Shown here: piece by piece, positions 2,455 through 35,735 of the stretch
How the letters are laid out: each line of letters begins with the position of its first letter
Numbering within the stretch: position 1 is the stretch's first letter
From: Massalongia carnosa
Lineage: Eukaryota
NCBI GenBank assembly: GCA_965645245.1
Contig: OZ287070.1
Coordinates: forward strand, 1,364,001-1,428,000
DNA length: 64,000 nt
Reading direction: 5' to 3'
The notes under the pieces: generated by a model
Databases searched by the model: none
What the model saw: the letters and a program-made list of their open reading frames with translations, nothing else
Told to the model about the DNA's origin: nothing
Position numbers and translations under genes: made by a program

Positions 2455-5400
2455 TTACTGTTCGATCTCTCCCCAACCTCCAGTTTCGAAAATCTCGTCA
2501 TCAAGCTGACCTAGTATCCATTTTCTAGTCGCGATTTTGTTATTGACAATGAATTTAATCAAAATGTCATTTCCGATTTTTGTATTAAACAACATATTCA
2601 AGTTGATCGTAGTATCGATGGTTTGTTTCATGTTTTGAATTTCATCGAAATAGTGAATGCAATTCAATAACAAGTGTTCTGGCGTTTGTCGTTGATTGCA
2701 TCGATTTGAGCATTTTGACGAATTATAATCTTTCAATCGATGTAAATATGATCGAAAATAGCCGTGTCCGAATTTTAATTGCATAATAGTAGCAAATATC
2801 AATTTGGAACAGTTGTTTGATAAATAATAAATCTCGATATGCCAGGTTTCATTTCGAATTTCTCGTAGTATTTGCCTTTTGATTTGCATTGTTGCCATTG
2901 ATTCGTCCATGTGGTTAGCATATTTTGATTTATTTGATCTTTTATATAATCAAATGTTATAGCCGAGGACTCGACTAGGATTTGATTATGGCCCGTCTTT
3001 GCTATTTTGTCTGCAATTTCGTTTTCGGTAATATTCGAATGACTCGGAACCCATTGCAAAATCACCTGATAATTGCTTTCAAATAAGCGTTTTGCGAGCT
3101 TTCGAATTTGTCTTGCGAAAATATGATTTTTCAAGTTCTGAATTTCGTTTATCGCGTTTATACTATCAGAAAAAATCCAAATCGTTTTTTCCAAGTTCGA
3201 TAAAATATTAGTATTAGACAATTTATAGACCCATTTCATTGCTTGTAAAATTGCATGCAGTTCAGCATTTTTAATGCTTGACTGTTTGCTTAATTTCCAG
3301 CTTTTCGAAATCGTATGATACTTGATCAGACAATCTTTTTCGATAAATCGATCAAAATTATTGATAATACTACTCCAATTCCTCATAATTGGCGCAAATG
3401 TGACTGCAGACGTTGCAAATTCGATTTTCGATCCATCTGTATAAAGTAAAACTCGGGATTTATCGGAGTTCATTGATTTAATTTTGGATAAGGTCGAATA
3501 ATAACTTGATTTAGCAGATTCCTTTGTATTTTCGATTTGAAATTTGATTTTGCAAGGCGGTTTCCAAGGTTTAATAAAATGATTTGATTGTTCAAATTCA
3601 TCAGTTTTGTGAACTATATCGGAAACGGAATGAAGAACGCGAATAAGCTGACTAGGATGTCGTTTATTTGTTTGTTTTTCGTCTTCGTTCCATTCGGCAT
3701 ATTTGTTGTTCCATAAACTTGTGTCAAAACCGATATTTTCGAATTTTATCGAATATGTGTTTGGAATTCTTTGACAAATAGGGTTATTTTCGGCAATCTT
3801 CAATAATCGAATTGCGTATTTTTGATTTTTCATTAATAATCGAAGTTTAACTGGTAAAACATGTGATTCAATTTCCATCGCCTGAATAGGTGTGGTTTTG
3901 AAAGTTCCTAAAATCTTTCGAATCATTTGATTTTGTAGGTTCTGAAATAGTTTTTCATATTTCTTTTGACCATTATACCAAATTTCTGAGCCGTAGTCCG
4001 AAATAGGAATAATGCATGACATATAGAGCTGTCTGCATGCGGTCGGTTTCAGACCCCATTCGGATTTCATCAAATTCTGAATTGCAAAAAACGATCGATT
4101 CGCAGAAGAGATCCGCGTTTCGACGTGTTTTTTGAAATTTAGTTTTCGGTCTAACCAGACGCCCAACCATTTGACTACATTTTTCGGTTCTAGTACTGTC
4201 CCGTTTGGTAATTCCAATGTGTCTTTCGATACATTTCTTGTCTTTTCGAAGTGAATCAGCTCGGATTTATCGTCATCAAATTTGACATTATTCGATGCGG
4301 CCCAATCAAAGGCCGTTTTGACTATGATTTCGATTTCTTTGCAATTCTGTTTTGCAGTTTTATTTTCGACATATATTGCAACATCGTCAATAAAACTGGG
4401 AGAATGTGCATTGAATTTCATTCGTATTTTCGGAAACAAGTGACGAATGTAAAGCAGAAATAGAATAGGCGAGATTGGTGAGCCTTGTGGAATTCCTGAT
4501 TCGACATAATATGTTTTGCTTAAATTTTCATCAAATATCAAATTGATCGATCGCTTTGTCATGAAATGCTTGACCCATTGAATTATTATGCGAGATAATT
4601 TCAGCTTTTTCATAACATTTAGCAGTTGATTAATCGAGACAAAGTCAAATGCGCCTTTGACATCGAGTAATAAACATGATAAGACGTTTTTATTTCTATT
4701 TGCAATTTCAATATCATGAACAACGTTCATTACTGCGTCAATTGCAGAATGATTTTTGCGTCCGCCCATCTGTTCGATATCGAGTAAATTCGAATTTTCG
4801 CCGAAGTAGGCTAGTCGATTTGCAACGATTTTCTCAGCAATTTTACCAAGACAATTTAATAATGTGATAATTCGATATGATTTTGGAAACGAATAGTCCG
4901 ATTTATTAGGTTTTTTCAGAACTGCACCGAGTCCTGTCCGCCAGCATAACGGGTGATAACCGATTCGAATGAATTTCGAATAAATCATGAAAAACACGTT
5001 TTTCAACGATTGAAACGATTTTTGAACAATTGTAAAATTGATTGCATCAGGTCCACATGCTTTCTTCGGATTAAATAAACTAATCGCATTTTTCAACTCG
5101 TTTTCGGTCAAATCTGGCCAATTATCATCATTTACGCTGTCTTGATTTGATAAATCTTCCTCATTATCGTCAATAAATGGGTTTTTTGTATACATTGCTG
5201 ACACAAATGCATCGCATTTGTCATCAAACTGAACATTTAGCTTGTTTTCATGTAGAATCGGCGGTATTTTTTCGAATATGCGCGGTTTAGTATATTTATA
5301 CGCGGTAAACACGTCTTTATTCGCTGCATTTTCTAGAAAAGTCAACCAGGTTTGTTGTTTTGCTTTTCGAATTGCATGAAAATACTCGATTCGACTATGT

Positions 5401-6467
5401 TTAAACGTCCGATGACTAAAATCGGACGGATAATTCTTCCATTCTCGACGATGTCTGCACATGGTTTTTCGAAGTTCAGTTAAATCATGCGACCACCAAT
5501 TTTTCGATTTTGCACAAATTTTCGTTTTCGGAATAAACATTTCAGCCGCGTTTTTGATAATGTTTTGCAAATATATCGCTGATTCGTCGAATTGATGATT
5601 ATTTAATAAACTTTGAACTTGTGATTCGTAGATGGTTGAATTTTCGTCTAGATACTTCGCGAATTTATTCCAATCAGCTTTATTGCAATTGTATTTATTC
5701 GATAATGCGGTTGCATGTGACCTCAAGTTTTTGAAAGATGCGATTAGTTCAAATCGGATGACTTCATGATCTGAACCTGTGACTGCGTTTTCATCGATTG
5801 ACCAATTTGTAATTGCATTTTCGATTTTAGAATTTGCAAAAGTTAAATCAATAACAGATGAAGAACTTCCAGAATGGGCGTAGTATGTACATAAGTCAGG
5901 TGTGTTTATCAAGCTACACCTGTTTAATTTCAACCATTTGACAAGATTTTCTGATCGAATTGCTCGTTGAATTTTCGAATTCCACCAGTTATGATGTGCA
6001 TTGAAATCTCCACAGATGACGAATTGATCAGTTGATTTTGGTTGTAATTGGATTAAAAGTCGATCGATCGTGTATGTTTCTCGATCACTTTGACTTTTTT
6101 CGTAATAAATATTGAAAATCTGCACTTTTCGAACTTCATCAATTGTAATTTCAATAATTTGCATATCGGAATCGTCAATAAGATCCGTTCTAGGCGTGCA
6201 TTGCAGTTTGGAATTGCCATTTGTGACAAATATAGCTACTCTCGAGCGATAAGTCGCTATTTTTGGCATAATACATGTAAATGACGGATGTGATATTGTT
6301 TTTTGATCTCGTGTCCATGGTTCCTGAAACAAAACAATATCAATTTGATTTGATAAAGCATATTCCAAACACGATATCATTGCATTCGTTGACTTTGCAC
6401 AATTATGTTGAATAAATTTAACATTTTGTGTATTTTCGATGTTTGTCAACGAATGCTGTCCTGCCAT
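2455..6467 (-). pseudogene. LINE ORF2 (APE endonuclease, reverse transcriptase, RNase H, CCHC) with a 1-nt frameshift near 2830
   Basis: Motifs GDFNAHH, SDH, PQGSPISP, FIDD, YTDGS/AEL/SDS; C-terminus lies in a second frame (2455-2910) but is contiguous in copy E. Confidence 0.92.
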
Positions 6468-8125
6468 TACAAAGCGGCTAATTCGTCAGTCGATTTTCGA
6501 ACATTTAACGATATAACCATTTCACAATTTTCATCATTGGATTGATGATTCTTGTTGCAATTCGCGCATTTGACGACGGCGTGTGCACAAGCAATTTTTG
6601 ACTTGCATGTTGTGCATTCATGATTGCGTGTTTCATGGTTTTGCGCACATATGCTGCATTTCGCTTGACTTTTGCATTGATAATGCTTGTGTCCAAATTT
6701 TTGACAATTAATGCATTGTGTGTTTGGACGAACGGAGGTAAATATTTCCGTGTCACAATGTCGGCCCGCGATATTGACTCCTTTTAACGCGTTCAAGGCC
6801 ATATTTCGATCATTGAATGTCAAAACAACGGATGATTTGATCTTGTTATGACGATCACGTGCTAGCCATCTGGGAACATCGCATAATTGCATGTTCGAAT
6901 TGAACTTTTGAATTTCGTCTTGCAAATATTGCATGTTTTCATCAAATGTTGCAATATTTACACCGTGTGCGACGACTTTGAACCACGATTCGTCCTTTCG
7001 AACTGTTCGTGGGTCGAATAAATGCTCCCATATTGATTTATTGTTCAATAAATCTTCAGCAGTGTTATCAGGACTAGTAGTCAGAACGATGTTTTGACCC
7101 GTTTTGGACTTTTCGACCGTGTTAACAACGATAGTCAATTTCGCGTCTTTAAAAAGCGAATTGATTTGGTTTCGAAGCAACAGTGAATCGATATCGCCGA
7201 TTTGAGCTTTCGGTGTGATTATCAATCGTCGAGATTTGATCGCCTTGAAATCGTCAGTATTATCGAATTTGTTCGCATTCGAATTATTGTTGTTGTTCTT
7301 GTTTGTTTTTTTGGATCGAGGAACGGTAGTCCAATTTTCGGAATTGACAGTCGCTTTTCCGAGCATTTGGCTCCATGTTCTAGCTGTATCGTTGACCTGC
7401 GGCCCTGGGACTCCGGCGGTTTCGCTCCGAATTTCTGGGTTGACGTTTTGAGTCAAATTCGAATTTCCATTTGAATTTCCCTTCGATTTTGTCTGTATAG
7501 GATGCACCGATTGTCTCTTTGTTTCTGGAATTTGGCTAGTTTGTTCTAGCACCCTATTCAATTTCCAATCAATCATTTCTAACGTTGCTTTTGGCTTGAT
7601 CGATTTCTTTGCCAGTAGAGAATTGACGTGATCGATGACCATAGCCGTTTCGGGGTTTTGATCTATTACGAATGACTCTAATAATGCATTTTTTGCCGTA
7701 TTCAATAGTTGAATCGATTTTGATCGATTGATGACTTCTTGACTCTCAATCGAATGTTCGTCAAATGTTCGTCTTTTGTTGCGTTTAATTGGTGGACTCA
7801 GTCGAATATCAGAATTCAATGATGGCATGGGCAGATTGGTATTGAATTCACCAGATGGCGCGACAAAAGGTTTCGTTTTTGGGGTGGGTGTGGACGGTGC
7901 GGACGAAAATTCTCGCGTTTGGTCCATGGCCTCCGTGGATTCTACGGTTAGGGGGTTGCTCCCAATTATCGCTACCGAAGATGGCGTGGGGGAGTCGGTT
8001 CGGGGGGGGCACGGGGGAGTACTCGGGGGGACCCATAGATGTTGTGGAGGGGGGCCTGGGGGAGGAGTTGTTGGTATCAATCGATTTGGTCTATGACCTA
8101 TCGGGTTAAATCTTCGATTGAGCAT
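6467..8125 (-). CDS. LINE ORF1 (gag-like; Pro-rich N-terminus, C-terminal Cys/His knuckles), 552 aa
   Basis: CINCQKFGHKHYQC and further knuckles; stop overlaps ORF2 start (TAATG). Confidence 0.92.
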   Translation of the reverse strand: MLNRRFNPIGHRPNRLIPTTPPPGPPPQHLWVPPSTPPCPPRTDSPTPSSVAIIGSNPLTVESTEAMDQTREFSSAPSTPTPKTKPFVAPSGEFNTNLPMPSLNSDIRLSPPIKRNKRRTFDEHSIESQEVINRSKSIQLLNTAKNALLESFVIDQNPETAMVIDHVNSLLAKKSIKPKATLEMIDWKLNRVLEQTSQIPETKRQSVHPIQTKSKGNSNGNSNLTQNVNPEIRSETAGVPGPQVNDTARTWSQMLGKATVNSENWTTVPRSKKTNKNNNNNSNANKFDNTDDFKAIKSRRLIITPKAQIGDIDSLLLRNQINSLFKDAKLTIVVNTVEKSKTGQNIVLTTSPDNTAEDLLNNKSIWEHLFDPRTVRKDESWFKVVAHGVNIATFDENMQYLQDEIQKFNSNMQLCDVPRWLARDRHNKIKSSVVLTFNDRNMALNALKGVNIAGRHCDTEIFTSVRPNTQCINCQKFGHKHYQCKSQAKCSICAQNHETRNHECTTCKSKIACAHAVVKCANCNKNHQSNDENCEMVISLNVRKSTDELAAL

Positions 8126-11100
8126 AGTGTTTTTGCCTTTGCAATATCCCTTTTATCGCCACCAAATAATTTATTCTGACTTTCCCCGGACGTACTAGTC
8201 AGAATAGAATTTACACCTGTTTGTTTACTGGTCAAATGACTCTTTCTTTCCTATCCCTATTTATTTGACTATAACGCGTCAAATAAATCCTAATCGGGTT
8301 AAAATAGACCGTTCCTCGCTAAGGCAGTAAGTCTTATTTAACCCTTTACCAGACACTACAATAGGTGAAAATAATGAAAGTTTTTTTTTTGCTTTTTTCA
8401 ATAAAGATAAATTTTAATGCAATGTAAGACAATAGGAGACTTCCTATTCTGATTAATCTGAAACAGGACCTTTGGTATAATCCTATTCCAGACGTTTTTC
8501 CCCTTCTTTTCAGTGATCTGTTGACCGGCCGTTCAACGAAGATCTATAAAGCCGAAAATGGAATGTGCAAAAATTATACGTGAAATATGCTATGAAAATT
8601 TGTGCTTGCGGAAGTTCCCGTAACCTTAAATGAGGAATGAACTTTAGAAGACTCTGACGTCGCGACAGTTGTTGTACAGTCCCGCGAGAGTAGATAATTT
8701 TTGTAGATAATTTTTATAGTAATAATTGAAGGTCATGCGACAACAGAACAGAAGAAAACAAGAAAAAAGAGCGATTTTTGGTGAGGTTGTTGGTATTTGT
8801 TGTTTTTTCCAACTTCTAGAGCGCGCTTTATCACGTCGGTCGCGTGCGACCAGCAGAAAAACTCTGCTGGAGCTTTGCTAGAGCTCTCCTACACTCAATC
8901 TGTGAGCGTTTTAACTCTGGAGGAGCGCAAATGACTGAGAAATAGAGGCTCAATTGACTGTTAAAGTTATAGTGTATCAAAAGTTGCGGTACTTGTGTTT
9001 CTTGTTGTTCAGGCGTGGGATGTCAATGCAACTATTGTAGTGTCTGGTAAAGGGTTAAATAAGATTTACTGCCTAAGCGAGGAACGGTCTATTTTAACCC
9101 GATTAGGATTTATTTGACGAGTTATTGTCATATAAATAGGGATAGGAAAGCAAGAGTCGTTAGACCTGTAAATTGGTGTAAATTTCTATTCTGATTAGTA
9201 CGTCCGGGGAACATCAGAATAAATTATTTGGTGGTGATAAAAGGGATATTGAAAAGGCATATCGATTTATTTATTAAATCATGTTCAATCCGGTACTCCC
9301 TAGGACTCGACGAATTATATCGAGAGCCTCCCCGGGAACACCCCTGAGCACTCCTCAAAACCCTCCCCAAATGGAATCTCCGGGGCTCTCGTCAGTAGGA
9401 CTTATAGAAAAATCTCCTGTACTTGACGAGCCTATGGATCAATCACATGAATATTCGTCCTCCCCGACTACGCCGACCCCAAAAGCAACCAATTCCCATC
9501 TGGACAATTTACTACCAATCTACCCATGCCATCGTTAAATTCTAATATAGAATTAAGCCCGCCTATCAAACGTAACAAACGAAAAACATTCGACGAACGA
9601 GTAGAGGAAAGCCAAGAAGCAATCAATCGAGCACAATCGATTGGATTACTCAAAACGGCTAAAACCGCGTTATTGAAGTCATTTGTCTTAGATCAAAATC
9701 CAGAAACAGCAATAGTCATTGATAATGTCAATTCCTTATTGACAAAAAAATCAATTAATATAAAAACAACACTAGATATGATGAATTGGAAATTGGACAA
9801 GGTAATTGATCAGACTAGTAATCGAACCTCAGAAACAACGCGAAAATCGACTCGGGTTCAACAAGTCAATACGACTGAAAATCCAAATAAAGTCGTCAAC
9901 ACGAACGCACGAAAGGAAACCGCCGGGGTTACGAGTACAAAGGTCAATAACACGCCTCCATCCTGGAGTCAAATGCTTGGAAAAGCAACTGCGAATTCCG
10001 AAAATTGGACCACTGTTTCCAGATCGAAAAATTCGAGTCAAACCTCGAACAAATTCGACAAAACCTCGAACAAATTCGACAAAACCGACGAATTAAATGC
10101 AATCAAACTCAGACGACTGATAATTACACCAAAAAGTCAAATCGGCGATATCGACTCATTGAAACTTCGAGATCAAATCAACGCGCAATTCAGCAACGCG
10201 AAGTTAGATATCGGAATCAACACGGTCGAAAAATCGGAAACCGGTCAGAATATCGTTCTCACTACTAGTTCGAAAAACACTGCTGCAGAATTGTTGGAAA
10301 ACAAGTCTATATGGGAACATATGTTCGATGCACAAAGAATTCGAAAAGACGAATCCTGGTTTAAAGTGATCGCACATGGAGTAAATATTGCAACGTTTGA
10401 TCAAAATATGCAATATTTGCAAAATGAAATCCAGAAATTCAACCTTAACATGGAATTATGCGAATTGCCCAGATGGCTAGCGCGAGACCGCGAAAATAAA
10501 GTCAATTCTTCGGTCGTTTTGACTTTTAACGATCGAAATCAGGCCTTAAACGCGTTTTTTTTTATTATTTATTCATTGAGTGTATTCAACCTAAGGTTAT
10601 GACACTCAACTATTTTAAGATATATTTCTATAATACAAATAAATGAACCCTTTATAACCCATCTATGAATCTTCAATTTTTCCCCGTTTTTACTCCGTGT
10701 TAGTAACAACCTATAGTAATCGAATTTTCGATTTTACAATTTGTCTTTGTAAAGTTCGTAAGTGTTTCAGGATAAATCAATTCTGATTTTACTGTTCGAT
10801 CTCTCCCCAACCTCCCGTTTCGAAAATTTCGTCTTCTAGCTGACCTAGTATCCATTTTCTAGTAGCGATATTGTTTTTGGCAATAAACTTTATCAAAATG
10901 TCATTTCCAATTTTGGTATTGAATAAAATGTTCAAATTGATTGTAGTATCGATACTTTGTTTCATTATTTGAATTTCTTCAAAATAGTGATTGCAGTTCA
11001 ACAATAGATGTTCTTGCGTTTGACTTTCGTTGCATCTATTCGTGCATTTTGACGAATTGTAATCTTTCAATCGATATAGATATGAACGAAAATAACCGTG

Positions 11101-20400: not shown

Positions 20401-21161
20401 TGATTTTTTCGAAATCAACGAATTAACGTTGTCAATTACGATAGCCGTTTGTGGATTTTGGTCCAGTTCAAATGATTGCAATAATGCTTTTTTGGCCGAC
20501 TTTAGAAGCTCAATTGAATTTGCCCGATTGATCGCTTCTTGGCTATCTCTCGAATGTTCGTCAAATGTGCGTCTTTTATTTCGTTTGATTGGTGGACTTG
20601 ATCCAATGTTTAAGTTCAATGAAGGCATCGGCAAGATAATGGAAAATGGACCCGATGGGAATTTCGTTGCCTTTGGTGTCGGTGTTGACGGGGCTGATGC
20701 ATATTCGCGAGTTTGATCCATAGGTTCAAGACGGGGAGAGCTCCCTATCAACGCCACCGGAGATGGTCCGGGGGAGTGTCGGGGGGGGGCCGGGTAAGGG
20801 GTCGATAGGGGGGCGGGACCGGCTGGGGGTGGTGTCCTTGGTATATTCCGGCGGTTCATTACCGCGTTAAACATGGATTTATAAATAAATCGATGTTGCC
20901 TTTGCTATATCCCCTTTATCGCCACCAAATAATTTATTCTGACGTTCCCCGGACGTAATAGTCAGAATAGAGAGTTTTTACGCCGATTTACTGGTCTAAA
21001 GACTCTTGCTTTCCAAACCCTATTTATTTGACAATAACAAGTCAAATAAATCCTAGTCGAGTTAAAATAGACCGTTCCTCGCTTAGGCAATAGATCTTAT
21101 TTAACTCTTTACCTTGACACTACGATATATGGAATATAATAAGAATTTTACGATCGAACAG

Positions 21162-21794: not shown

Positions 21795-21883
21795 TTTTCA
21801 AAACTGCACCGAGTCCTGTCCGCCAGCATAACGGATGATAACCGGTTTGAATGAATTTTGAATAAATCATAAAAAACACGTTT

Positions 21884-21931
21884 CAGTCTCCGACGAGAGA
21901 GTTGAGAGAGTCAGAGCCGGCTGACCGTCTG
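21884..21931. other. 48-bp foreign insertion with a 5-bp duplication CGTTT in ORF2 of A
   Basis: Other copies read aaaaacacgtttttcaacg; here cgttt[CAG...CTG]cgttt. Confidence 0.8.
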
Positions 21932-23480
21932 CGTTTTTCAACGATTGAAACGATTTTTGAACAATTGTAAAATTGATTGCATCAGGGCCACATGCTTTTT
22001 TCGGATTAAACAAACTAATCGCATTTTGCAACTCGTTTTCGGTCAAATCCGGCCAATTATTGTCATCTTCGTTGTCTTGATTCGATAAGTCTTCGACATT
22101 ATCGTCTATAAATGGGTTTTTTGTGTACATTGCTGCAACAAATGCATCGCATTTGTCATCGAATTGAACATTTAACTTATTTTCATTTTGAATTGGTGGT
22201 ATTTTTTCGAATATGCGCGGTTTAGTGTATTTATACGCTGTAAATACGTCTTTATTCGCTGCATTTTCTAGAAAAGTCAACCAAGTTTGTTGTTTTGCTT
22301 TTCGAATTGCATGAAAATATTCGATTCGGCTATGTTTAAAGGTTCTATGACCAAAATCGGAGGGATAATTCTTCCATTCTCGACGATGTCTAGACATAAT
22401 TTTTCGGAGTTCAGTTAAATCTTGCGACCACCAATTTTTTGATTTTGCACATATTTTGGTCTTCGGAATAAACATTTTAGCTGCGTCTTTAATAATATCT
22501 TGCAAATAGATCGCTGATTCGTCGAATTGATGATTATTCAATAAACTTTGAACCTGTGTTTCGTAGTTTATTGAATTTTCAACTAAAAACTTCGCGAACT
22601 TGTCCCAATCGGCTTTATTGCAATTGTATTTGTTTGATAATGCGGTTGCATGTGTCGTCAAATTCTTGAAAGATGCGATTAATTCAAATCGAATGACTTC
22701 ATGATCTGAACCTGTGACTGCGTTTTCATCGATTGACCAATTTGTTATTGCATTTTCGATTTTAGAATTTGCAAATGTTAAATCAATAACAGATGAAGAA
22801 CTTCCAGAATGGGCGTAAAATGTAAATAAATCAGACGTATTAATCAAACTACACTTTTTTGATTTTAACCATTTCACTAGATTTTCAGATTGAATTGCAT
22901 GCTGAATTTTCGAATTCCACCAGTTATGATGTGCATTGAAATCTCCACATATTACAAATTGATCATTGAATGTAGGTTGATATTTGACTATTAGTCGGTC
23001 GATTGTATATGTTTCCCGATCGTTTTGACTTTTTTCATTGTAAATGTTGATAATCTGTACTTTTCGAATATCATCAATTGTAATCTGGATAATTTGCATA
23101 TCGGGATCGTCAATAAGATCCGTTCTAGGCGTGCATTGAAGTTTCGAATTGCATTTAGTGACAAATACAGCTACTCTCGAGCGATAAGCTGCTATTTTCG
23201 GCATAATGCATGTGAATGACGGATGAGAAATAGTTTTTTGATCGCGTGTCCAAGGTTCCTGAAATAAAACAATATCAATTTGATTTAATACTGCGTATTC
23301 CAGACACGAAATCATTGCATTCGTTGACTTTGCACAATTGTGTTGAATAAATTTGAGATTTTGTGTATTTTCGATGTTTGTCAACGAATGTTGTCCTGCC
23401 ATTACAACACGGACAATTCGTCAGTCGATTTTCGAACGTTTAACGATGCAATCATTTCACATCGTTCATCATTTGACTGA

Positions 23481-25233
23481 CTAAGAATGATAAAATAGAG
23501 TTGACATCTCCTTCGTGAAGTCTCTATCCCAGTTTTCGTTCATCTCACTGGTGCGTTTTACGGCCCAAGACTATTGATGAATTCTACGATTGGGGTGAAC
23601 GACGTCCCTTTCGCCCAGGTCAAACCCAGTTTACTCCTTAAGCATATATCAAGGGCGAGTCTAGCCGTAGCCCATGCGCCGGCGAACCGACGGGGTCTCG
23701 TTACGAGCGAGATAGACATTCCCTGCTCTATATACACCGACATGCGCATACTATCCTCTCGGGCTATGCAGACGGTCTCCGTACGGTGGCCGCCATTGCA
23801 TACCACGCCTCACGGGTTTTTTACGCCCACTTCGCGTTATTCATAAAGGTCTCCCGTTTATGAACCGACCATGTCTCGCAAGGATTTCGACAGCTATGCT
23901 TCTGACCAGGCAGTATAGTATCGATTTTCCGTCCCTACTAACCAAAACAAGTCGAGGACAACTCGGAGTGGTGCTCGTTTGAAATTCGTCTATTAGCTCA
24001 GGGCCTAGACTGTTATCAATTAACGGGTTCCTCGTATATTGCCCTCTTCTTGTCCCAAGGGTGTCCTATTTGATGACTAGGTTGCCTCCACCATCCCCGG
24101 TACGACTCCGGTTCGGGCCGTGTTGCTCACGGTAGCCATCAATCGGATGGTTTTCATAACCCAAATCCCTTGTATCGTGTAGGGTGTGACCCTACACTAT
24201 GTGTCTATATGTTTTATTTCTTTCAGCCGGAGGGCTCCGTGTTGTAGACGAAGGAGACCCGTGTGATAGACATAGCTGACCCGTGTCGTACGTCTTTAGC
24301 TCTCAGCCGATTACTGCATGAAAGGACTTGAACCTTTAAGAGTATGACCGAACGTTGTTAACGAGATCTATGAAAATCTTATTAACGAGGTCTTCGAGAA
24401 CAATATTAACGATGTTCCGCTGAACTCTTTTCATTCGATTTGTGATCCATCGAGGTCTACCCGTGTCAAATCCACACCATGCCCGTGTCAAAATACATTA
24501 TTTTCAGCTGATGACTGCTAGAAAGGACTTGAACCTCTAAAAATATGTACTCCGATATTAACGGGGTGCAGATCTGTCTTAACGAGCCCCCGCAGAACCC
24601 CCTTCACAGGGACGTGTTATTGATTTGTGACTGTGTTTTTTGTGACTGTATGTTTGTGACTGTGTGATTTGTGAGTGTGTGCTTTGTACAACGTGTGATT
24701 GATGACTATGTGTTTTGTGACTTTGTTTTCCTGGATTTTATTTAACAGGCCGGGCCTATTAAATGGGATATTGTTATTCTGCTCCGAGATAGAGTTTTCT
24801 TGAGGTGACAGCATTCGCCCCGGTGCCTTTACGCGTTCTGTTGATCCCAGCTGATGACTGCATAGGGAGACTTGAACTCTCAGGAGCTAGAACGCGTGTC
24901 GACAGTGCCCGGGTGGGGGATGATGCGGCTCCTTTGGTCCACATCTTCTTCCAGCTGATGACTGCATGAAGGGACTTGAACCCTTAGAAGCATGGTGCAG
25001 GGACGCGCGCATTCTACCCCCCGGCGGTTGGCCTTCGTATCCTCTTCCGTACGTACGTCTGCGACGCGTGTGAACGCGTTAAATTAGCATTGTTTTGATG
25101 CGAAGAGATAGGAGCAAATCTATGTTTGACGGTCGCCCCACGGTGAGGCCTTTGGCGTCTCCGTGGTGAGTACCGATGGTAACTTGTTCATTTAACAATC
25201 ATGAATTGTAATGATACTGTCACGCGAATGATC
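23481..25233 (-). ncRNA. Putative retrocopied structured non-coding RNA of unknown origin
   Basis: Not homologous to the LINE, no ORF over 90 aa, many hairpins, four conserved 35-nt modules; lies inside the TSD of insertion A. Confidence 0.55.
24304..24986. repeat. Four dispersed 35-nt modules, consensus CAGCTGATGACTGCATGAAGGGACTTGAACCCTTA (24304, 24505, 24848, 24952)
   Basis: Direct sequence comparison; minus strand reads GGTTCAAGTCC (T-loop/B-box). Confidence 0.9.
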
Positions 25234-25960
25234 CCTTAAACGCGTTAAAAGGCGTAAATATCGCGGGAAAACACTGTGACACGGAAATATTTACTTCCGT
25301 TCGTCCGAATATACAATTTATTAATTGTCAAAAATTCGGACACAAGCATTATCAGTGTCGAAACAAATCAAAATGCAATATTTGTGCACAAAATCATGAA
25401 ACACGTAATCATGAATGCATAACATGCAAATCGAAAACTGCGTGTGCACACGTTGTTGTAAAATGTGCAAACTGCAATAAAAATCATCAATCAAATGATG
25501 AACATTGTGAAATGTTTACTGCATTGAATCCACGAAAATCGGCTGACGAATTATCCGCCTTATAATGGCAGGACAGCATTCGTTGGTAAATATAGAAAAT
25601 ACTCACAATGTCAAATTTATTCAACACAACTGTGGAAGGTCAACGAATGCAATGACTTCGTGTTTGGAATATGCTTTATCAAATCAAATTGATATTGTTT
25701 TATTTCAGGAACCATGGACACGAGATCAAAAAACAATATCACATCCGTCATTTACATGCATTTTGCCGAAAATAGCGACTTATCGCTCGAGAGTAGCTAT
25801 ATTTGTCACAAAATGCAATCCCAAACTGCAATGCACGCCTAGAACGGATCTTATTGACGATTCCGATATGCAAATTATTGAAATTACAATTGATGAAGTT
25901 CGCAAAGTGCAGATTTTCAATATTTATAACGAAAAAAGTCAAAATGATCGAGAAATATAC

Positions 25961-28705
25961 GGTTATCACCCGTTATGCTGGCGGACAGGACTCGGTGCAG
26001 TTCTGAAAAAACCTAATAAATCGGACTATTCGTTTCCAAAATCATATCGAATTATCACATTATTAAATTGTCTTGGTAAAATTGCTGAGAAAATCGTTGC
26101 AAATCGACTAGCCTACTTCGGCGAAAATTCGAATTTACTCGATATCGAACAGATGGGCGGACGCAAAAATCATTCTGCAATTGACGCAGTAATGAACGTT
26201 GTTCATGATATTGAAATTGCAAATAGAAATAAAAACGTCTTATCATGTTTATTACTCGATGTCAAAGGCGCATTTGACTTTGTCTCGATTAATCAACTGC
26301 TAAATGTTATGAAAAAGCTGAAATTATCTCGCATAATAATTCAATGGGTCAAGCATTTCATGACAAAGCGATCGATCAATTTGATATTTGATGAAAATTT
26401 AAGCAAAACATATTATGTCGAATCAGGAATTCCACAAGGCTCACCAATCTCGCCTATTCTATTTCTGATTTACATTCGTCACTTGTTTCCGAAAATACGA
26501 ATGAAATTCAATGCACATTCTCCCAGTTTTATTGACGATGTTGCAATATATGTCGAAAATAAAACTGCAAAACAGAATTGCAAAGAAATCGAAATCATAG
26601 TCAAAACGGCCTTTGATTGGGCCGCATCGAATAATGTCAAATTTGATGACGATAAATCCGAGCTGATTCACTTCGAAAAGACAAGAAATGTATCGAAAGA
26701 CACATTGGAATTACCAAACGGGACAGTACTAGAACCGAAAAATGTAGTCAAATGGTTGGGCGTCTGGTTAGACCGAAAACTAAATTTCAAAAAACACGTC
26801 GAAACGCGGATCTCTTCTGCGAATCGATCGTTTTTTGCAATTCAGAATTTGATGAAATCCGAATGGGGTCTGAAACCGACCGCATGCAGACAGCTCTATA
26901 TGTCATGCATTATTCCTATTTCGGACTACGGCTCAGAAATTTGGTATAATGGTCAAAAGAAATATGAAAAACTATTTCAGAACCTACAAAATCAAATGAT
27001 TCGAAAGATTTTAGGAACTTTCAAAACCACACCTATTCAGGCGATGGAAATTGAATCACATGTTTTACCAGTTAAACTTCGATTATTAATGAAAAATCAA
27101 AAATACGCAATTCGATTATTGAAGATTGCCGAAAATAACCCTATTTGTCAAAGAATTCCAAACACATATTCGATAAAATTCGAAAATATCGGTTTTGACA
27201 CAAGTTTATGGAACAACAAATATGCCGAATGGAACGAAGACGAAAAACAAACAAATAAACGACATCCTAGTCAGCTTATTCGCGTTCTTCATTCCGTTTC
27301 CGATATAGTTCACAAAACTGATGAATTTGAACAATCAAATCATTTTATTAAACCTTGGAAATCGCCTTGCAAAATCAAATTTCAAATCGAAAATACAAAG
27401 GAATCTGCTAAATCAAGTTATTATTCGACCTTATCCAAAATTAAATCAATGAACTCCGATAAATCCCGAGTTTTACTTTATACAGATGGATCGAAAATCG
27501 AATTTGCAACGTCTGCAGTCACATTTGCGCCAGTTATAAGGAACTGGAGTAATATTATCAATAATTTTAATCGATTTATCGAAAAAGATTGTCTGATCAA
27601 GTATCATACGATTTCGAAAAGCTGGAAATTAAGCAAAAAGTCAAGCATTAAAAATGCTGAACTGCATGCGATTTTACAAGCAATGAAATGGGTCTATAAA
27701 TTGTCGAATACTAATATTTTATCGAACTTAGAAAAAACGATTTGGATTTTTTCTGATAGTATAAACGCGATAAACGAAATTCAGAACTTGACAAATCATA
27801 TTTTCGCCAGACAAATTCGAAAGCTCGCAAAAATCTTATTTGAAAGCAATTTTCAGGTGATTTTGCAATGGGTTCCGAGTCATTCAAATATTACCGAAAA
27901 CGAAATTGCAGACAAAATAGCAAAGACGGGCCATAATCAAATCCTAGTCGAGTCCTCGGCGATAACATTTGATTATGTAAAAGATCAAATAAATCAAAAT
28001 ATGCTAACCACATGGACGAATCAATGGCAACAATGCAAATCAAAAGGCAAATACTACGAGAAATTCGAAATGAAACCTGGCATATCGAGATTTTATTATT
28101 TATCAAACAACTTTTCCAAATTGATATTTGCTACTATTATGCAATTAAAATTCGGACACGGCTATTTTCGATCTTATTTACAGCGATTGAAAGATTATAA
28201 TTCGTCAAAATGCACAAATCGATGCAATCAACGACAAACGCCAGAACACTTGTTATTGAATTGCATTCACTATTTCGATGAAATTCAAAACATGAAACAA
28301 AATATCGATACTACCATCAACTTGAATATGTTGTTTAATACAAAAATCGGAAATGACATTTTGATTAAATTCATTGTCAATAACAAAATCGCGACAAGAA
28401 AATGGATACTAGGTCAGCTTGATGACGAGATTTTCGAAACTGGAGGTTGGGGAGAGATCGAACAGTAAAATCATAAACGATTTATGCTGAAACATTCACG
28501 AACTTACAAAGACAAATTTTAAAATCGATATTCTTCGATTACTATAGGTTGTTACTAACACGGAGTAAAAATGGGGAAAAATTGACAATACATAGATGGG
28601 TTATAAAGGGTTGATTTATTTGTAATATAGAAACATATCCTAAAATAGTTTAGTGTCATAACCTTAGGTTGAATACACTTAATGAATAAATAAAAAAAAA
28701 AAAAA
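25961..28705 (+). mobile_element. 5'-truncated LINE (copy E) inserted in D, fused in frame to D's ORF2 start
   Basis: Poly(A); TSD GATCGAGAAATATAC at 25946-25960 and 28706-28720. Confidence 0.93.
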
Positions 28706-29096
28706 GATCGAGAAATATACACGATCGATCGACTTTTAATCAAATATCAACCTACATCAACTAATCAATTCGTCAATTGTGGAGATTTCAATGCACATCG
28801 TAACTGGTGGAATTCAAAAATTCAACACGCATTTCGATCAGAAAATTTAGTCAAATGGTTGAAAATAAACAAATGTAGTTTGATAAACACACCTGATTTA
28901 TGCACATTCTACGCCCATTCTGGAAGTTCATCATCTGTTATTGATTTAACATTTGCAAATTCCAAAATCGAAAATGCAATTACAAACTGGGCAATCGATG
29001 GAAACGCAGTCACAGGTTCAGATCATGAAGTCATCCGATTTGAACTAATCGCATCTTTCAAGAATTTGACGTCACATGCAACCGCATTATCGAATA

Positions 29097-30919
29097 ACGT
29101 AATTTACCCTCATTCGGGTCAGCCCCCCATTCGGGTCACCCCATTAAAATCTAGCGACCGAAAAGATTTCTATCCTGTTTATCTACTACCACCATATATT
29201 TATCTATTAATCGTAGATAAAATGTCCATTAATATGCCTACAATTGACTCTGCTACTAGATTACAGTTGGCTATCGAAGAATTAGCCAAAAATCCGGGCA
29301 TTTCGCAGCGGGAAATAGCGCGCCTTTACGGAGTTCCTCAGTCGACTTTACAGGCCCGGCTCAAAGGCAGGCGGGCCGCAAAACACTATCATCAAGCCGC
29401 CCAAAGGCTATTCGTCCACGAAGAACAGGCTCTGATTGATTGGATAGAGCGGATGACCTCATGGGGTTGGCCGCCTCGTACCCAACATTTGGAAGGCATG
29501 GCCAGAAGTCTCCTGAACGCCAAAGGGGACAAAAATCCGTTGGGTCGTCATTGGTATCAAAAGTTCCTGAAAAGGCATCCCGATTTCAAAATCAAATACA
29601 ATAGAAACCTCGATCAATCCAGAAAGGACGCTGGTAGTCCCAAAATTTTGCGTGATTGGTTCGAATTGTACACGACCACCTTGGTCAAATATGGGATTTC
29701 AGATGAAGATACTTACAACATGGATGAAAAAGGCTTTGCTATGGGCATCGCTGACAGTTCGAAGGTCATAATCAAAGGAACAACAATACCATTCAATGTG
29801 CATCCGGGAAATAGGGACTGGGTTTCTCTTATTGAGTGCATATTATCCCGCGGAACAGTTCTTCCGGCTATTATCATTTTCCAAGGTGCCCAAGTTCAAC
29901 CTGCATGGTATGATGCCATGGAGACGAAGGCAGATACCGTTCGGGTCAGTCCCAATGGTTGGGCGGATGCGGAGATAGTCCTTCATTGGTTGCAAACGGT
30001 GTTCAATAAGTATACAAAACCTGAACGAGGCATGTATATAGGATGCTAATTGTAGATGGCCATGAGAGTCACGTCTCCATTCCTTTTATGGAGTTTTGTA
30101 CCCAAGCGAAAATCATACCCCTTTGTTTGCCACCATATTCAACTCATTTATTGCAGCCCCTGGATGTCGGTGTTTTTGGCCCTTTATCTAAGGCCTTTAA
30201 ACAACTCGTTTCCAGCCAATCACGTTACGGGGCTGTGACTATTTCTAAGCTAGATTTTTTGCGCCTTATTCAGGTGGCTAGGAAACAGGCCATTACTACT
30301 ACTAACATCATAAGTGCATGGCGGGGGGCAGGCCTCATCCCATTTAATCCAGGGCATGTTCTAGGCGAGTTGCCTAGGCCTATCACACCTCCTATCTATC
30401 CAAACACCGTCACCGATGCCCCCCAAACGGAGCAGCGAATCCAGGAAGTCAGCGATGCCCTTAAAACCTGTATAACTCCATCTCTTCGCGCGCATGTTGA
30501 GTTGCTTAAAACAACTGCTTTGAATGCCGTCGCTGATAGGGTTATTCTAAGACACACCAATCAAGAACTGATTGATAAAAGGCTCAGGGACGTCAAAAAG
30601 CATCCAGAAAGGGGGGTGTTAAAGCGAGGGTGCTGACTGTGGGTGAAGGGCAGGCGATTGCGGAGGAAAAACAGAGGAAGGAAGAAGCATTGGCCAAACA
30701 AAAGGAACGGTACCATGCTTTAAATGGGAAAGTAAAGTTCGCAAAGGCCATATGGAAGGAAATGCAGATGGATAGTGGTGTTTTTAGTTAGTTTTGGGGA
30801 TGGTGGAAGCAATGTAATATTTTTCTTTGGTGTAGGGCGAAGGTTTTTTTTTTGGTGGGGTGACCCGATTGGGTGGCTGACCCGAATGGGGGGCTGACCC
30901 GAATGAGGGTAAATTACGT
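29097..30919 (+). mobile_element. Fot1/pogo-like DNA transposon (1.82 kb); transposase ~29222-30790 with frameshifts
   Basis: TIR ACGTAATTTACCCTCATTCGGGTCAGCCCCCCATTCGGGTCA, TA duplication; motifs YNMDEKGF, LIVDGH, QPLDVG. Confidence 0.95.
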
Positions 30920-31731
30920 TAAATATAATTGCAATAAAGCCGATTGGAATAAATTCGCGAAGTTTCTAGACGAAAATTCAATCAACTACGAATCAAAAGT
31001 TCAAAGTTTATTGAATAATTATCAATTCGACGAATCAGCGATACATTTGCAAAAAATTATCAAAAACGCGGCTGAAATGTTTATTCCGAAAACAAAAATA
31101 TGTGCAAAATCGAAAAATTGGTGGTCGCAAGATTTAACCGAACTTCGAAAAATCATGTGCAGGCATCGTCGAGAATGGTGAATTATCCGTCCGATTTTAG
31201 TCATCGGACGTTTAAACATAGTCGAATCGAGTATTTTCATGCAATTCGAAAAGGAAAACAACAAACCTGGTGGACTTTTCTAGAAAATGCAGCGAATAAA
31301 GACGTTTTTACCGCGTATAAATATACTAAACCGCGCATATTCGAAAAAATCCCGCCAATTCTACATGAAAATAAGCTTAATGTTCAGTTTGATGTCAAAT
31401 GCGATGCGTTTGTGTCAGCAATGTACAATAAAAACCCATTTATAGACGATAATGTGGAAGATTTACCAAATCAAGACAGCGAAAATGATGATAACTGGCC
31501 AGATTTGACAGAAAACGAGCTGCAAAATGCGATTAATTTATTTAATCCAAAGAAAGCATGTGGACCTGATGCAATCAATTTTACAATTGTTCAAAAATCG
31601 TTTCAATCGTTGAAAAACGTGTTTTTCATGATTTATTCGAAATTCATTCGAATCGGTTATCACCCGTTATGCTGGCGGACAGGACTCGGTACAGTTCTGA
31701 AAAAACCTAATAAATCAGACTATTCGCTACC

Positions 31732-34700
31732 ATAATAGCCGGAAGAACTGTTCCGCGGGATAATATGCACTCAATAAGAGAAACCCAGTCCCTATTTCCC
31801 GGATGCACATTGAATGGTATTGTTGTTCCTTTGATTATGACCTTCGAACTGTCAGCGATGCCCATAGCAAAGCCTTTTTCATCCATGTTGTAAGTATCTT
31901 CATCTGAAATCCCATATTTGACCAAGGTGGTCGTGTACAATTCGAACCAATCACGCAAAATTTTGGGACTACCAGCGTCCTTTCTGGATTGATCGAGGTT
32001 TCTATTGTATTTGATTTTGAAATCGGGATGCCTTTTCAGGAACTTTTGATACCAATGACGACCCAACGGATTTTTGTCCCCTTTGGCGTTCAGGAGACTT
32101 CTGGCCATGCCTTCCAAATGTTGGGTACGAGGCGGCCAACCCCATGAGGTCATCCGCTCTATCCAATCAATCAGAGCCTGTTCTTCGTGGACGAATAGCC
32201 TTTGGGCGGCTTGATGATAGTGTTTTGCGGCCCGCCTGCCTTTGAGCCGGGCCTGTAAAGTCGACTGAGGAACTCCGTAAAGGCGCGCTATTTCCCGCTG
32301 CGAAATGCCCGGATTTTTGGCTAATTCTTCGATAGCCAACTGTAATCTAGTAGCAGAGTCAATTGTAGGCATATTAATGGACATTTTATCTACGATTAAT
32401 AGATAAATATATGGTGGTAGTAGATAAACAGGATAGAAATCTTTTCGGTCGCTAGATTTTAATGGGGTGACCCGAATGGGGGGCTGACCCGAATGAGGGT
32501 AAATTACGTTATTCGATAATGCGGTTGCATGTGACGTCAAATTCTTGAAAGATGCGATTAGTTCAAATCGGATGACTTCATGATCTGAACCTGTGACTGC
32601 GTTTCCATCGATTGCCCAGTTTGTAATTGCATTTTCGATTTTGGAATTTGCAAATGTTAAATCAATAACAGATGATGAACTTCCAGAATGGGCGTAGAAT
32701 GTGCATAAATCAGGTGTGTTTATCAAACTACATTTGTTTATTTTCAACCATTTGACTAAATTTTCTGATCGAATTGCGTGTTGAATTTTTGAATTCCACC
32801 AGTTATGATGTGCATTGAAATCTCCACAAATGACGAATTGATTAGTTGATGTAGGTTGATATTTGATTAAAAGTCGATCGATCGTGTATATTTCTCGATC
32901 ATTTTGACTTTTTTCGTTATAAATATTGAAAATCTGCAATTTGCGAACTTCATCAATTGTAATTTCAATAATTTGCATATCGGAATCGTCAATAAGATCC
33001 GTTCTAGGCGTGCATTGCAGTTTGGGATTGCATTTTGTGACAAATATAGCTACTCTCGAGCGATAAGTCGCTATTTTCGGCAAAATGCATGTAAATGACG
33101 GATGTGATATTGTTTTTTGATCTCGTGTCCATGGTTCCTGAAACAAAACAATATCAATTTGATTTGATAAAGCATATTCCAAACACGAAATCATTGCATT
33201 CGTTGACCTTCCACAGTTGTGTTGAATAAATTTGACATTGTGAGTATTTTCTATATTTGCCAACGAATGCTGTCCTGCCATTATAAGGCGGATAATTCGT
33301 CAGCCGATTTTCGTGGATTTAATGCAGTAAACATTTCACAATGTTCATCATTTGATTGATGATTTTTATTGCAGTTTGCACATTTCACAACAACGTGTGC
33401 ACACGCAGTTTTCGATTTGCATGTTATGCATTCATGATTACGTGTTTCATGATTTTGTGTACAAATATTGCATTTTGATTTGTTTCGACACTGATAATGC
33501 TTGTGTCCGAATTTTTGACAATTAATACATTGTGTATTCGGACGAACGGAAGTAAATATTTCCGTGTCACAGTGTTTTCCCGCGATATTTACGCCTTTTA
33601 ACGCGTTTAAGGCCTGATTTCGATCGTTAAAAGTCAAAACGACCGAAGAATTGACTTTATTTTCGCGCTCTCGCGCTAGCCATCTGGGCAAATCGCATAA
33701 TTCCATGTTAAGGTTGAATTTCTGGATTTCATTTTGCAAATATTGCATATTTTGATCAAACGTTGCAATATTTACTCCATGTGCGATCACTTTAAACCAG
33801 GATTCGTCTTTTCGAATTCTTTGTGCATCGAACATATGTTCCCATATAGACTTGTTTTCCAACAATTCTGCAGCAGTGTTTTTCGAACTAGTAGTGAGAA
33901 CGATATTCTGACCGGTTTCCGATTTTTCGACCGTGTTGATTCCGATATCTAACTTCGCGTTGCTGAATTGCGCGTTGATTTGATCTCGAAGTTTCAATGA
34001 GTCGATATCGCCGATTTGACTTTTTGGTGTAATTATCAGTCGTCTGAGTTTGATTGCATTTAATTCGTCGGTTTTGTCGAACTTGTTCGAGGTTTGACTC
34101 GAATTTTTCGATCTGGAAACAGTGGTCCAATTTTCGGAATTCGCAGTTGCTTTTCCAAGCATTTGACTCCAGGATGGAGGCGTGTTATTGACCTTTGTAC
34201 TCGTAACCCCGGCGGTTTCCTTTCGTGCGTTCGTGTTGACGACTTTATTTGGATTTTCAGTCGTATTGACTTGTTGAACCCGAGTCGATTTTCGCGTTGT
34301 TTCTGAGGGTCGATTACTAGTCTGATCAATTACCTTGTCTAATTTCCAATTCATCATATCTAGTGTTGTTTTTATATTAATTGATTTTTTTGTCAATAAG
34401 GAATTGACATTATCAATGACTATTGCTGTTTCTGGATTTTGATCTAAGACAAATGACTTCAATAACGCGGTTTTAGCCGTTTTGAGTAATCCAATCGATT
34501 GTGCTCGATTGATTGCTTCTTGGCTTTCCTCTACTCGTTCGTCGAATGTTTTTCGTTTGTTACGTTTGATAGGCGGGCTTAATTCTATATTAGAATTTAA
34601 CGATGGCATGGGTAGATTGGTAGTAAATTGTCCAGATGGGAATTGGTTGCTTTTGGGGTCGGCGTAGTCGGGGAGGACGAATATTCATGTGATTGATCCA

Positions 34701-35735
34701 TAGGCTCGTCAAGTACAGGAGATTTTTCTATAAGTCCTACTGACGAGAGCCCCGGAGATTCCATTTGGGGAGGGTTTTGAGGAGTGCTCAGGGGTGTTCC
34801 CGGGGAGGCTCTCGATATAATTCGTCGAGTCCTAGGGAGTACCGGATTGAACATGATTTAATAAATAAATCGATATGCCTTTTCAATATCCCTTTTATCA
34901 CCACCAAATAATTTATTCTGATGTTCCCCGGACGTACTAATCAGAATAGAAATTTACACCAATTTACAGGTCTAACGACTCTTGCTTTCCTATCCCTATT
35001 TATATGACAATAACTCGTCAAATAAATCCTAATCGGGTTAAAATAGACCGTTCCTCGCTTAGGCAGTAAATCTTATTTAACCCTTTACCAGACACTACAA
35101 TAGTTGAAAATAATGAAAGGTTTTTTTTTTGCTTTTTTGCGATAAAAATAGATCTAAGGCAAGGTAAGATAATAAGAGACTTCCTATTCTGATTGAAATA
35201 GGATCTTTGGTATAATCCTATTCCAGACGTTTTTCCCCTTCTTTTCATTGATCTGTTGACCGGCCGTTCAATGGAGATCGATAAAGCCTAAAATGGTATA
35301 TGCAGAAATTATACGTGAAATATACTGTGAAAATTTGTGCTTGCGGAAGTTCCCGTAACCTTAAATGAGAAATGAACTTCAAAAAAGTTGGTCGTCGCGA
35401 CAGTTGTTGTACAGTACCGCGACAGTAGATATTTTTTGTAGATAATTCTTGTAGTAATAATTGAGGGTAATGCGACAACAGAACAGAAGAAAGTGAGAAA
35501 AAAGAGCGATTTTTGGTGATATTGTTGGTATTTGTTGTTTTTATAACTTCTTGAGCGCGCTTTATCACGTCTGTCGCGTGCGACCAGCAGAAAATCTCTG
35601 CTGGAGCTTTGCTAGAGCTCTCCTACACTCAATCTGAGTCCGTTTTTGCTCTGGTGGAGCTCAAATGACTGAGAAAGAGATGTTCAATTGACTATGAAAG
35701 TTATAGAGTATCAAAAGTTGCGGTACTTGTGTTTC
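31732..35735 (-). mobile_element. LINE copy F (5'UTR, ORF1, endonuclease) ending in the 5' part of the same Fot1-like element (31732-32508); inverted duplicate of D
   Basis: Same Fot1 insertion site and same ORF1 frameshift as D. Confidence 0.9.
33281..34854 (-). pseudogene. LINE ORF1 with a 1-nt frameshift near 34640 (442 aa remain open downstream)
   Basis: Homologue reads TPKATKFPSG in one frame; here it is split between two ORFs. Confidence 0.8.

Follow-up and report, generated by a model that had tools for sequence, protein, structure and literature searches.

A candidate structured RNA module with a T-arm-like hairpin, repeated in the non-coding leader of truncated long interspersed nuclear element chimeras

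The window analysed here, a 64-kb stretch of the Massalongia carnosa genome (contig OZ287070.1 of assembly GCA_965645245.1, positions 1,364,001 to 1,428,000), is eukaryotic transposon-rich DNA in which Pfam recognises Tad1/I-type long interspersed nuclear elements (LINEs), chromodomain Ty3/gypsy elements and pogo/Tc1 transposons; its Tad1/I-type LINE copies encode endonuclease, reverse transcriptase and RNase H, the LINE protein resembles Ascomycota clusters, and the stretch is also present in sequencing runs that include a lichen metagenome and, with small shares, freshwater and air samples, none of the runs listed being of RNA. Within this window, a three-way-junction module of ~45 nt occurs in four copies, all of them on the minus strand and together spanning 24300-24990. 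These copies are no free-standing genes; they belong to the repeated head of a non-coding leader joined to truncated Tad1-like LINEs, a context missed by a sequence-only reading of the same DNA that had singled them out. The segment that holds the leader, 23481-25233, is single-copy within the window and is bordered on either side by a 5'-truncated LINE, the two LINE copies being arranged head to head.

The four modules that the sequence-only reading had placed on the minus strand are all present: a degenerate 30-nt pattern, GTTCAAGTCYYYYNNNGCAGTMATCRGCTG, searched with three mismatches or fewer, matches at 24304-24333, 24505-24534, 24848-24877 and 24952-24981 and nowhere else in the 64 kb, 100 shuffles of the window give a mean of 0.00 matches and thus a chance expectation of zero, and a covariance model (R1) returns the same four copies only. 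Read along the minus strand, the layout is the one described from the sequence: a closing stem, one U, a 5-bp stem capped by the loop TTCAAGT, a 4-nt linker (CATG, TATG, CTAG and CATG in the window copies) and a hairpin made of CAG, seven nucleotides and CTG, which runs without a gap into the closing stem of the module. This second hairpin is better drawn as four base pairs (C-G, A-U, G-C and U-G) around a 5-nt loop. In module A, the closing stem CTTC/GAAG is followed by the U, by AAGGG-TTCAAGT-CCCTT, by the linker CATG and by the hairpin CAGT-CATCA-GCTG, and the minimum-energy fold reproduces the junction. Module B combines an inner closing stem TCC/GGA with an outer stem of 9 bp (ACGCGTTCT/AGAACGCGT); module C has a closing stem ATTTT/AAAAT lengthened to about 17 bp and a T-arm-like stem AGAGG/CCTTT that includes one G-U pair; in module D, the corresponding stems are CTCT/AGAG and AAAGG/CCTTT. 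Three details depart from what had been claimed for all four copies. The T-arm-like stem of module B, GAGAG/CTCCC, contains an A-C mismatch and pairs at four of its five positions; the second hairpin keeps CAG/CTG in every copy, with the loop TCATCAG replaced in module D by TAATCGG (CAGT-AATCG-GCTG when drawn with four pairs); and the closing stems pair in every copy save for the outermost position of module D, where the minus strand has A opposite C and the plus strand G opposite T. Folding of the single sequences gives z-scores of 0.54, -1.55, -2.45 and 0.42 for modules A to D, no better than chance for two of the copies, so that the case for a structure rests on covariation. The four window copies on their own hint at the fold and cannot prove it; it is established by 67 distinct homologues.

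These homologues were reached by scanning for the exact core GTTCAAGTC-N7-GCAGTCATCAGCTG, which is present in 40 loci of metagenome contigs (soil and lichen fungal sequences), is found in none of the viral contigs and is absent from 185,579 prokaryote genomes (one genome per species). An ungapped alignment of 38 distinct modules has 84.2% of its cells paired, against 72.2% in shuffles, and not one of 500 shuffles reaches the observed pairing or the observed covariation score; as a control, sliding the pairing partner by 1-3 columns cuts the pairing to 42-56%. In this alignment, the T-arm-like stem is 95.8% paired, its loop-closing G-C is invariant and four of its five pairs have changes on both sides, which bears out the covariation first proposed from four copies; the four inner closing pairs are formed in 32, 35, 35 and 38 of the 38 modules, and all of them covary. 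Matches of R1 in the metagenome loci amount to 111, or 115 with the window copies, and these were reduced to 67 distinct sequences fitted to the model. With 35 distinct T-stems and 33 distinct inner closing stems among them, 94.9% of the T-stem cells and 98.1% of the second-hairpin cells are paired. The loop is TTCAAGT in 60 of the 67 sequences (five exceptions are C-to-T decay, e.g. TTTAAGT), the junction U is kept in 66 and the G-C pair closing the T-stem in all 67. Compensatory changes are rare in the second hairpin, the first pair being exchanged as GAG/CTC in two sequences and as UAG/CUA in two, and the fourth pair occurring in C-G and U-A variants. The consensus that emerges consists of a variable closing stem, a U, a 5-bp stem with the invariant G-C and the loop UUCAAGU, a linker ending in G, and CAGU/GCUG around the loop CAYCR. 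The three-way-junction fold is under purifying selection, as had been proposed from the window copies. Among the nine best pairs, G-U outnumber A-C by 33 to 6, which identifies the RNA as the strand that carries the T-loop, i.e. the minus strand of the window; the earlier view that the strand is left undecided by the G-U pairs, fair as it was with four copies, is overturned by this count.

In terms of known RNA folds, the first hairpin has the features of the T-arm of transfer RNA (tRNA): a 5-bp stem, the G53-C61 pair and a loop that fits TTCRANN, with U at loop position 1 and A at loop position 5, matching tRNA positions 53-61. The loop sequence UUCAAGU is compatible with the T-loop motif, in which U1 and A5 would be able to form a reverse-Hoogsteen pair and position 4 would be followed by a stacking gap; it also fits GUUCNANNC and GUUCRA, which the excerpted text of one study gives as motifs of T-loop-modifying enzymes on non-tRNA targets (PMC11019747). 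The module differs from tRNA in having no D-arm, anticodon arm, acceptor end or CCA, in line with what had been noted from the sequence; ARAGORN finds 0 tRNA genes in the 64-kb window and 0 in 33 metagenome loci, and Rfam none either. It also differs in its topology, which is mirrored, the T-arm being placed on the 5' strand of the closing stem and paired with a conserved 4-bp hairpin of the module's own, and in that one long RNA carries it in up to four copies or more. Partial tRNA mimics are known, among them viral tRNA-like structures and mascRNA-type elements. As a separate observation, a canonical T-arm-like hairpin (AATAG-TTCGAAT-CTATT), called as no tRNA by ARAGORN, is found at ~700-735 (oriented) of locus L002, near the 5' end of one leader family.

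Searches of Rfam, whose families cover ribozymes and exoribonuclease-resistant RNAs (xrRNAs), give 0 matches at gathering score in the whole window, no match on the modules at E-values up to 10 (23800-25500) and 0 matches at E-values up to 1 in five leader loci. The string GCAGTCATCAGCTG has no exact occurrence in the literature searched, and among the matches listed for GGTTCAAGTCC none appeared related to retroelement leaders; in the literature on T-loops and tRNA-like RNAs in retrotransposons, on fungal non-LTR untranslated regions and on LINE template switching the module is undescribed, an entry in a repeat library being possible. The proposal of a new RNA motif absent from Rfam is borne out in that its homologues, collected by the model search that had been suggested, covary and match no Rfam family, the opposite of two of the results that the sequence-only reading had named as speaking against it. 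The module is a well-supported candidate for a new structured RNA motif, apparently undescribed: it is known from over 60 distinct sequences, its three helices covary, its loops are invariant, and it sets the most conserved arm of tRNA in an unusual topology. Several other candidates were rejected: a match to the small RNA SpR10 at 23922-23965 reaches 26.3 bits against a gathering score of 50 and was taken as chance; a hammerhead ribozyme around the plus-strand CTGATGA has misplaced helices, an unconserved GAAA, a negative Rfam result and the wrong strand; and a hammerhead-like CUGAAGA in the 3' domain of the leader has, by eye, neither GAAA nor helix III. Inspection by eye also shows no kissing or pseudoknot complementarity, whether loop to loop or loop to box.

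The boxes in question flank the modules, which often lie within tandem repeat units of 116-183 bp, with one to at least four modules per leader. In the window, modules C and D are each preceded by two or three CGTTAA boxes and followed by two ACACGGG boxes (Table 1), and modules A and B have none. The same boxes recur at set distances from the modules of most loci. Of 64 distinct modules, 41 have GTTAA within 55 nt upstream, the distance falling in the 25-29 nt bin for 38 of the 41, where the background is 170 of 1823 windows; 47 have AYAYRGG within 60 nt downstream, 37 of them at 15-19 nt, where it is 152 of 1665. The background rate of either motif is ~9% of windows. From their sequence, the boxes could be protein sites on DNA or on RNA. 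The arrangement of the modules is itself variable: one low-depth contig of sequencing run X1 joins module D straight to module A (24347 to 24991), skipping 643 nt, which suggests that recombination among modules alters their number. The interval from module B to module C contains a series of CACAGTCACAAA-like short repeats (24600-24740, minus strand) of polymorphic length: contigs of other runs have 29 nt inserted at 24638 and lack the 78 nt of 24647-24726. Palindromes of the MluI type, ACGCGT, close module B, two more lie upstream of module A (25064-25079), and GAACGCGTC repeats are found at an equivalent position upstream of the modules in loci L009 and L017.

The leader as a whole measures ~1.1-2 kb across loci, and its 5' limit in the window copy falls at about 25180-25232; the LINE that adjoins it on this side is outside the element. 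The leader is high-copy: 3173 contig pieces of run X1 align to it, loose contig ends occur at 25180 and 23481, contigs of runs X2 and X4 break exactly at 23481, and one X2 contig carries 23481-25232 with flanks other than those of the window. Its 5' ends vary among copies, as expected of reverse-transcribed copies. About 190 nt upstream of the first module, a TATA-like ATATATAGAGCAGTA is found in L009, L017, L023, L025 and L040; further upstream are short tandem repeats of ~28-35 nt (CCTCCACGCGC...-type), and the loose ends at window 25180 in other runs bear similar repeats. Judging from its sequence, this region of TATA-like box and tandem repeats may be the promoter region of the leader.

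Downstream of the modules, blocks of the leader are kept at about 70-77% identity to the metagenome loci (24204-24054, 23946-23713 and 23645-23566). Applied to 10 sequences of leader block 2 (~150 nt), RNAalifold gives 42 predicted pairs, of which 23 show compensatory changes; by this model, block 2 is itself a predicted structured RNA domain, undescribed and unmatched in Rfam. The constant 3' end of the leader is reached ~800 nt downstream of the last module, and the terminus of the window copy, ...TCATTCTTAG, agrees with the ...CTTGGC terminus of other leader families. The last ~60 nt (window 23481-23560, minus strand; L009, L016, L025, L040 and others) contain a covarying hairpin within a CCAAGG/CCTTGG helix, exemplified by GTAGGGAC...GCCCTAC and GAAAGGAC...GCCTTTC, and the leader ends one base past this helix; helix and hairpin may define the constant junction with the LINE.

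In the window, LINE homology starts at 23480, directly after the leader end at 23481. The LINE open reading frame (ORF) of the chimera, 21867-23402, contains Pfam Exo_endo_phos_2 and Exo_endo_phos, and the LINE part is 86% identical to 4913-6545 of the full-length LINE of the window; the latter has its own 5' end near 9000 and an 875-nt 5' untranslated region (5'UTR; 8125 to about 9000) in which the R1 search finds no modules. In one locus family, 12 of 12 copies have an identical end point of the leader, ...CTATCCTT(G/A)G(C/T/A); this common end reads ...CTATCCTTGGC with variants like those of repeat-induced point mutation (RIP), and the LINE sequence after it differs in its start point. The constant terminus recurs in other families and at window 23481. 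By tblastn, 10 of the 40 loci have a match to LINE ORF2, in all ten downstream on the same strand, starting at residues 320, 495, 635, 692, 721, 723, 795 and 844, where 795 stands for two overlapping loci of one contig and 844 for two loci that resemble one place. Locus L007 has four modules followed by the tail of ORF1 and the ORF2 endonuclease, other copies join the LINE near the C-terminus of ORF2, and in no locus is the leader seen before a complete ORF1; the spans of the metagenome loci, cut off at 1.5 kb, stop short of the 3' end of the LINE, and the window chimera is interrupted by nested LINEs.

Table 1. Features of the leader, its modules and the adjoining LINE copies in the window.
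Feature	Position	Strand	Remarks
Whole non-coding leader (WEIRD-like 5' part of the chimera)	23481..25180	-	~1.7 kb; unique in the window
Module A	24948..24990	-	pattern match; R1 64.6 bits
Module B	24831..24897	-	pattern match; R1 58.0 bits
Module C	24489..24555	-	pattern match; R1 64.6 bits
Module D	24300..24342	-	pattern match; R1 57.2 bits
CGTTAA boxes upstream of modules C and D	24584-24579, 24563-24558, 24411-24406, 24387-24382, 24363-24358	-	spacing 21-24 nt
ACACGGG boxes downstream of modules C and D	24488-24482, 24466-24460, 24286-24280, 24264-24258	-	spacing 22 nt within pairs
Leader block 2, predicted structured domain of ~150 nt	24047..24198	-	71-77% identity in many loci
Leader blocks 3 and 4 and 3'-terminal domain	23481..23946	-	ends ...TCATTCTTAG at 23481
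5'-truncated LINE part of the chimera	21795..23480	-	last 78 nt of ORF1, then ORF2 endonuclease region
Neighbouring 5'-truncated LINE	25234..28705	+	Pfam RVT_1, RNase_H; opposite orientation

Judged by its anatomy, and not by any sequence homology, the leader behaves as WEIRD does in the Magnaporthe MINE chimeras. In the excerpted text of the 2007 MINE report, WEIRD is a 1.1-kb non-coding RNA always fused at full length to MGL, a LINE whose copies are truncated at many sites; the text mentions neither a solo copy nor a known relative of WEIRD, and it accounts for the chimeras by a template switch of the reverse transcriptase of the LINE (PMC2104539). Those excerpts report no structure, no repeats and no homologues in other fungi for WEIRD (PMC2104539). 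The points of likeness are a non-coding, multi-copy 5' part of ~1-2 kb with a constant 3' end, a variably truncated LINE and the lack of any solo copy seen; in addition, the terminal ...GGC of the leader parallels the GCC given for the MINE switch sites in the same excerpts (PMC2104539). The leaders described here show WEIRD-like behaviour and are, in other fungi, conserved, highly structured and repeated. Mammalian U6/L1 chimeras, as excerpted from their description, likewise carry a full-length non-coding RNA 5' of variably truncated LINE copies (PMC4476161). The leader differs from U6 in being no known housekeeping RNA (no Rfam match) and in being 1-2 kb long, repetitive and apparently propagated only as chimeras. 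The 5'UTR of mouse L1 consists of tandem monomers, and the leader resembles it in having a tandem unit of ~100-200 bp that heads a LINE-containing transcript, here inferred from DNA. The 5' ends of the L1Tc type, going by the excerpts of their report, share with the leader the presence of structured RNA at a LINE 5' end and differ from it in that no ribozyme family matches here (PMC3185411). In comparison with both mouse L1 and L1Tc, the leader is not the native UTR of the window's LINE.

This raises the question as to what the modules do. The reading we favour, and hold to be probable by a modest measure, is that they are selected cis-acting T-arm mimics, active as minus-strand RNA, which recruit a host or LINE factor within a MINE/WEIRD-like leader; the fold, its strand, the repeat units and the anatomy of the chimeras are observed, and the function of the module is what we infer from them. 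As a mimic of the T-arm or of the tRNA elbow, the module would recruit a tRNA-recognising host factor or the LINE ribonucleoprotein, T-loop modifiers being candidates because the loop fits their GUUCNANNC and GUUCRA motifs, and several modules per leader would raise avidity. Binding of such a factor would stabilise or localise the leader RNA and hold it near the reverse transcriptase; the enzyme would then switch template onto the 3' end of the non-coding leader RNA, and the leader, captured into chimeras, would spread as a 5' hitch-hiker. If the module does recruit T-loop-recognising enzymes or TFIIIC, this would be a transposon exploiting tRNA recognition. The module, the boxes, block 2 and the 3' terminus are elements now open to mutation in studies of chimera formation, and the setting may bear on the old puzzle of how non-coding RNA becomes fused to LINE copies.

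Several observations weigh against this reading. The T-arm lies on the 5' side of the junction and thus, unlike its counterpart in tRNA, does not adjoin the 3' strand of the closing stem, whose length moreover differs between modules. The module is not a canonical substrate of RNase P, RNase Z or the CCA enzyme. Modules A and D are thermodynamically unremarkable, and the minimum-energy fold of module B is a different structure. The invariance of the loop fits a DNA B box equally well, and the CGTTAA and ACACGGG boxes, phased at 21-24 nt, resemble protein sites on DNA. The loci may stem from few related fungi, in which case the compensatory events are fewer than the cells counted. As to the origin of the chimeras, template switching, site-specific insertion and deletion of a leader-bearing LINE all fit the junctions; locus L010 is in fact a deletion derivative of an L007-like element.

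A broader version of the same idea, which we regard as tentative and on balance do not expect to hold, would make the leader a widespread and unrecognised class of non-autonomous fungal retroelement that rides on the 5' end of LINE cDNA and not on its 3' end, a 'head-SINE' (after the short interspersed nuclear elements, SINEs) of which WEIRD would be one member and the modules tRNA-elbow mimics. The junctions would then dock the RNA on a tRNA-binding surface, be it of the ribosome, of tRNA-modifying or tRNA-ligating enzymes or of the LINE ribonucleoprotein, and a reverse transcriptase or an RNA ligase would join the leader to the LINE at its defined 3' terminus.

Rather unlikely, in our estimate, is the explanation that the leader is the native 5'UTR, or promoter monomer array, of a Tad1-like LINE lineage, the copies being internal-deletion derivatives and the module serving translation or packaging. 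Tandem monomers do lie upstream of LINE ORFs on the same strand, with a TATA-like box and short tandem repeats upstream of them in one family, and both the passage from four modules to the ORF1 tail and ORF2 endonuclease in L007 and the derivation of L010 by deletion fit such an origin. Against it, every family examined has the same leader terminus combined with a variable LINE start, L007 included; the leader has been found before a complete ORF1 in no locus; and the full-length LINE of the window, for all its 86% identity, has a different 5'UTR that is free of modules.

That the module acts at the level of DNA, its RNA fold being secondary, is unlikely too. The sequence would here be an array of TFIIIC B boxes (GGTTCAAGTCC) working as an RNA polymerase III (Pol III)-type promoter, as an extra-TFIIIC site or as a chromatin barrier that protects the promoter of the leader. 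The consensus of the B box is GGTTCGANTCC, and GGTTCAAGTCC, found in three of the window copies (GAGTTCAAGTCT in the fourth), fits it at 10 of 11 positions. The core is invariant across leader families, the boxes repeated at 21-24 nt look like DNA-binding sites, and the modules sit in tandem units of 116-183 bp in the manner of promoter monomers. In extra-TFIIIC sites and boundary elements, near-consensus B boxes are clustered where A boxes and tRNA genes are absent, and the modules are alike in this respect, no A box or tRNA being called, an absence that also counts against the DNA-level reading. However, a DNA site needs no complementarity between stems, whereas covariation here extends to the closing stem, to the second hairpin and to those T-stem positions that lie outside the box, and mismatches are strand-asymmetric (33 G-U against 6 A-C), which points to RNA; a pure DNA site predicts neither, and a DNA site alone would not explain three covarying helices. 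Nor are T-runs clearly depleted in 11 leaders, which have 0-3 runs of at least four T each and, in all, only two runs of five T, not clearly different from a rough estimate based on composition; Pol III transcription of 1-2 kb is thus unsupported. A role of the B box in DNA and a role of the RNA could coexist.

An RNA-processing or nuclease-blocking signal, which would act through RNase P, RNase Z, the tRNA splicing endonuclease, self-cleavage or Xrn1 stalling and would set the leader ends or free small RNAs, is improbable. The T-arm mimicry suits it, the constant 3' end of the leader needs some mechanism, and the HDV-like (hepatitis delta virus) ribozyme of L1Tc is, in the excerpts of its report, a precedent for ribozymes at LINE 5' ends (PMC3185411). 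Yet no ribozyme or xrRNA of Rfam matches at the thresholds given above for the window stretch and the five loci; the topology is mirrored with respect to tRNA and the closing stems are of variable length, which leaves RNase P and RNase Z without the ruler that they use; the 5' truncation points of the leader in one family (L002 coordinates 619-642, 790, 813, about 1095 and 1130) miss the modules, which start near 1300; and the constant 3' end is about 800 nt away from the last module. Barely credible is a neutral relic, that is, a decayed tRNA-derived SINE or pieces of tRNA genes that look alike through recent common descent: the T-arm is tRNA-like, and in the window, a graveyard of transposons, some copies show C-to-T decay of the RIP type (e.g. 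the TTTAAGT loops), but flanks and stems have diverged past alignment while 35 different T-stems and 33 closing stems still pair, the loops are invariant and no other part of a tRNA is detectable.

Elsewhere in the window, the region beyond the end of the full-length LINE, 9029-9598, is an inverted copy of 7756-8367 at 72% identity, and this inverted-copy arrangement of 7756-9600 recurs at 34535-35106 and 20556-21127. The ORFs at 28859-30049 (plus strand) and 31707-33281 (minus strand) each combine a LINE endonuclease fragment with pogo/Tc5 transposase domains, an arrangement that, from the sequence, would be that of a pogo element inserted into a LINE, the composite having then been duplicated.

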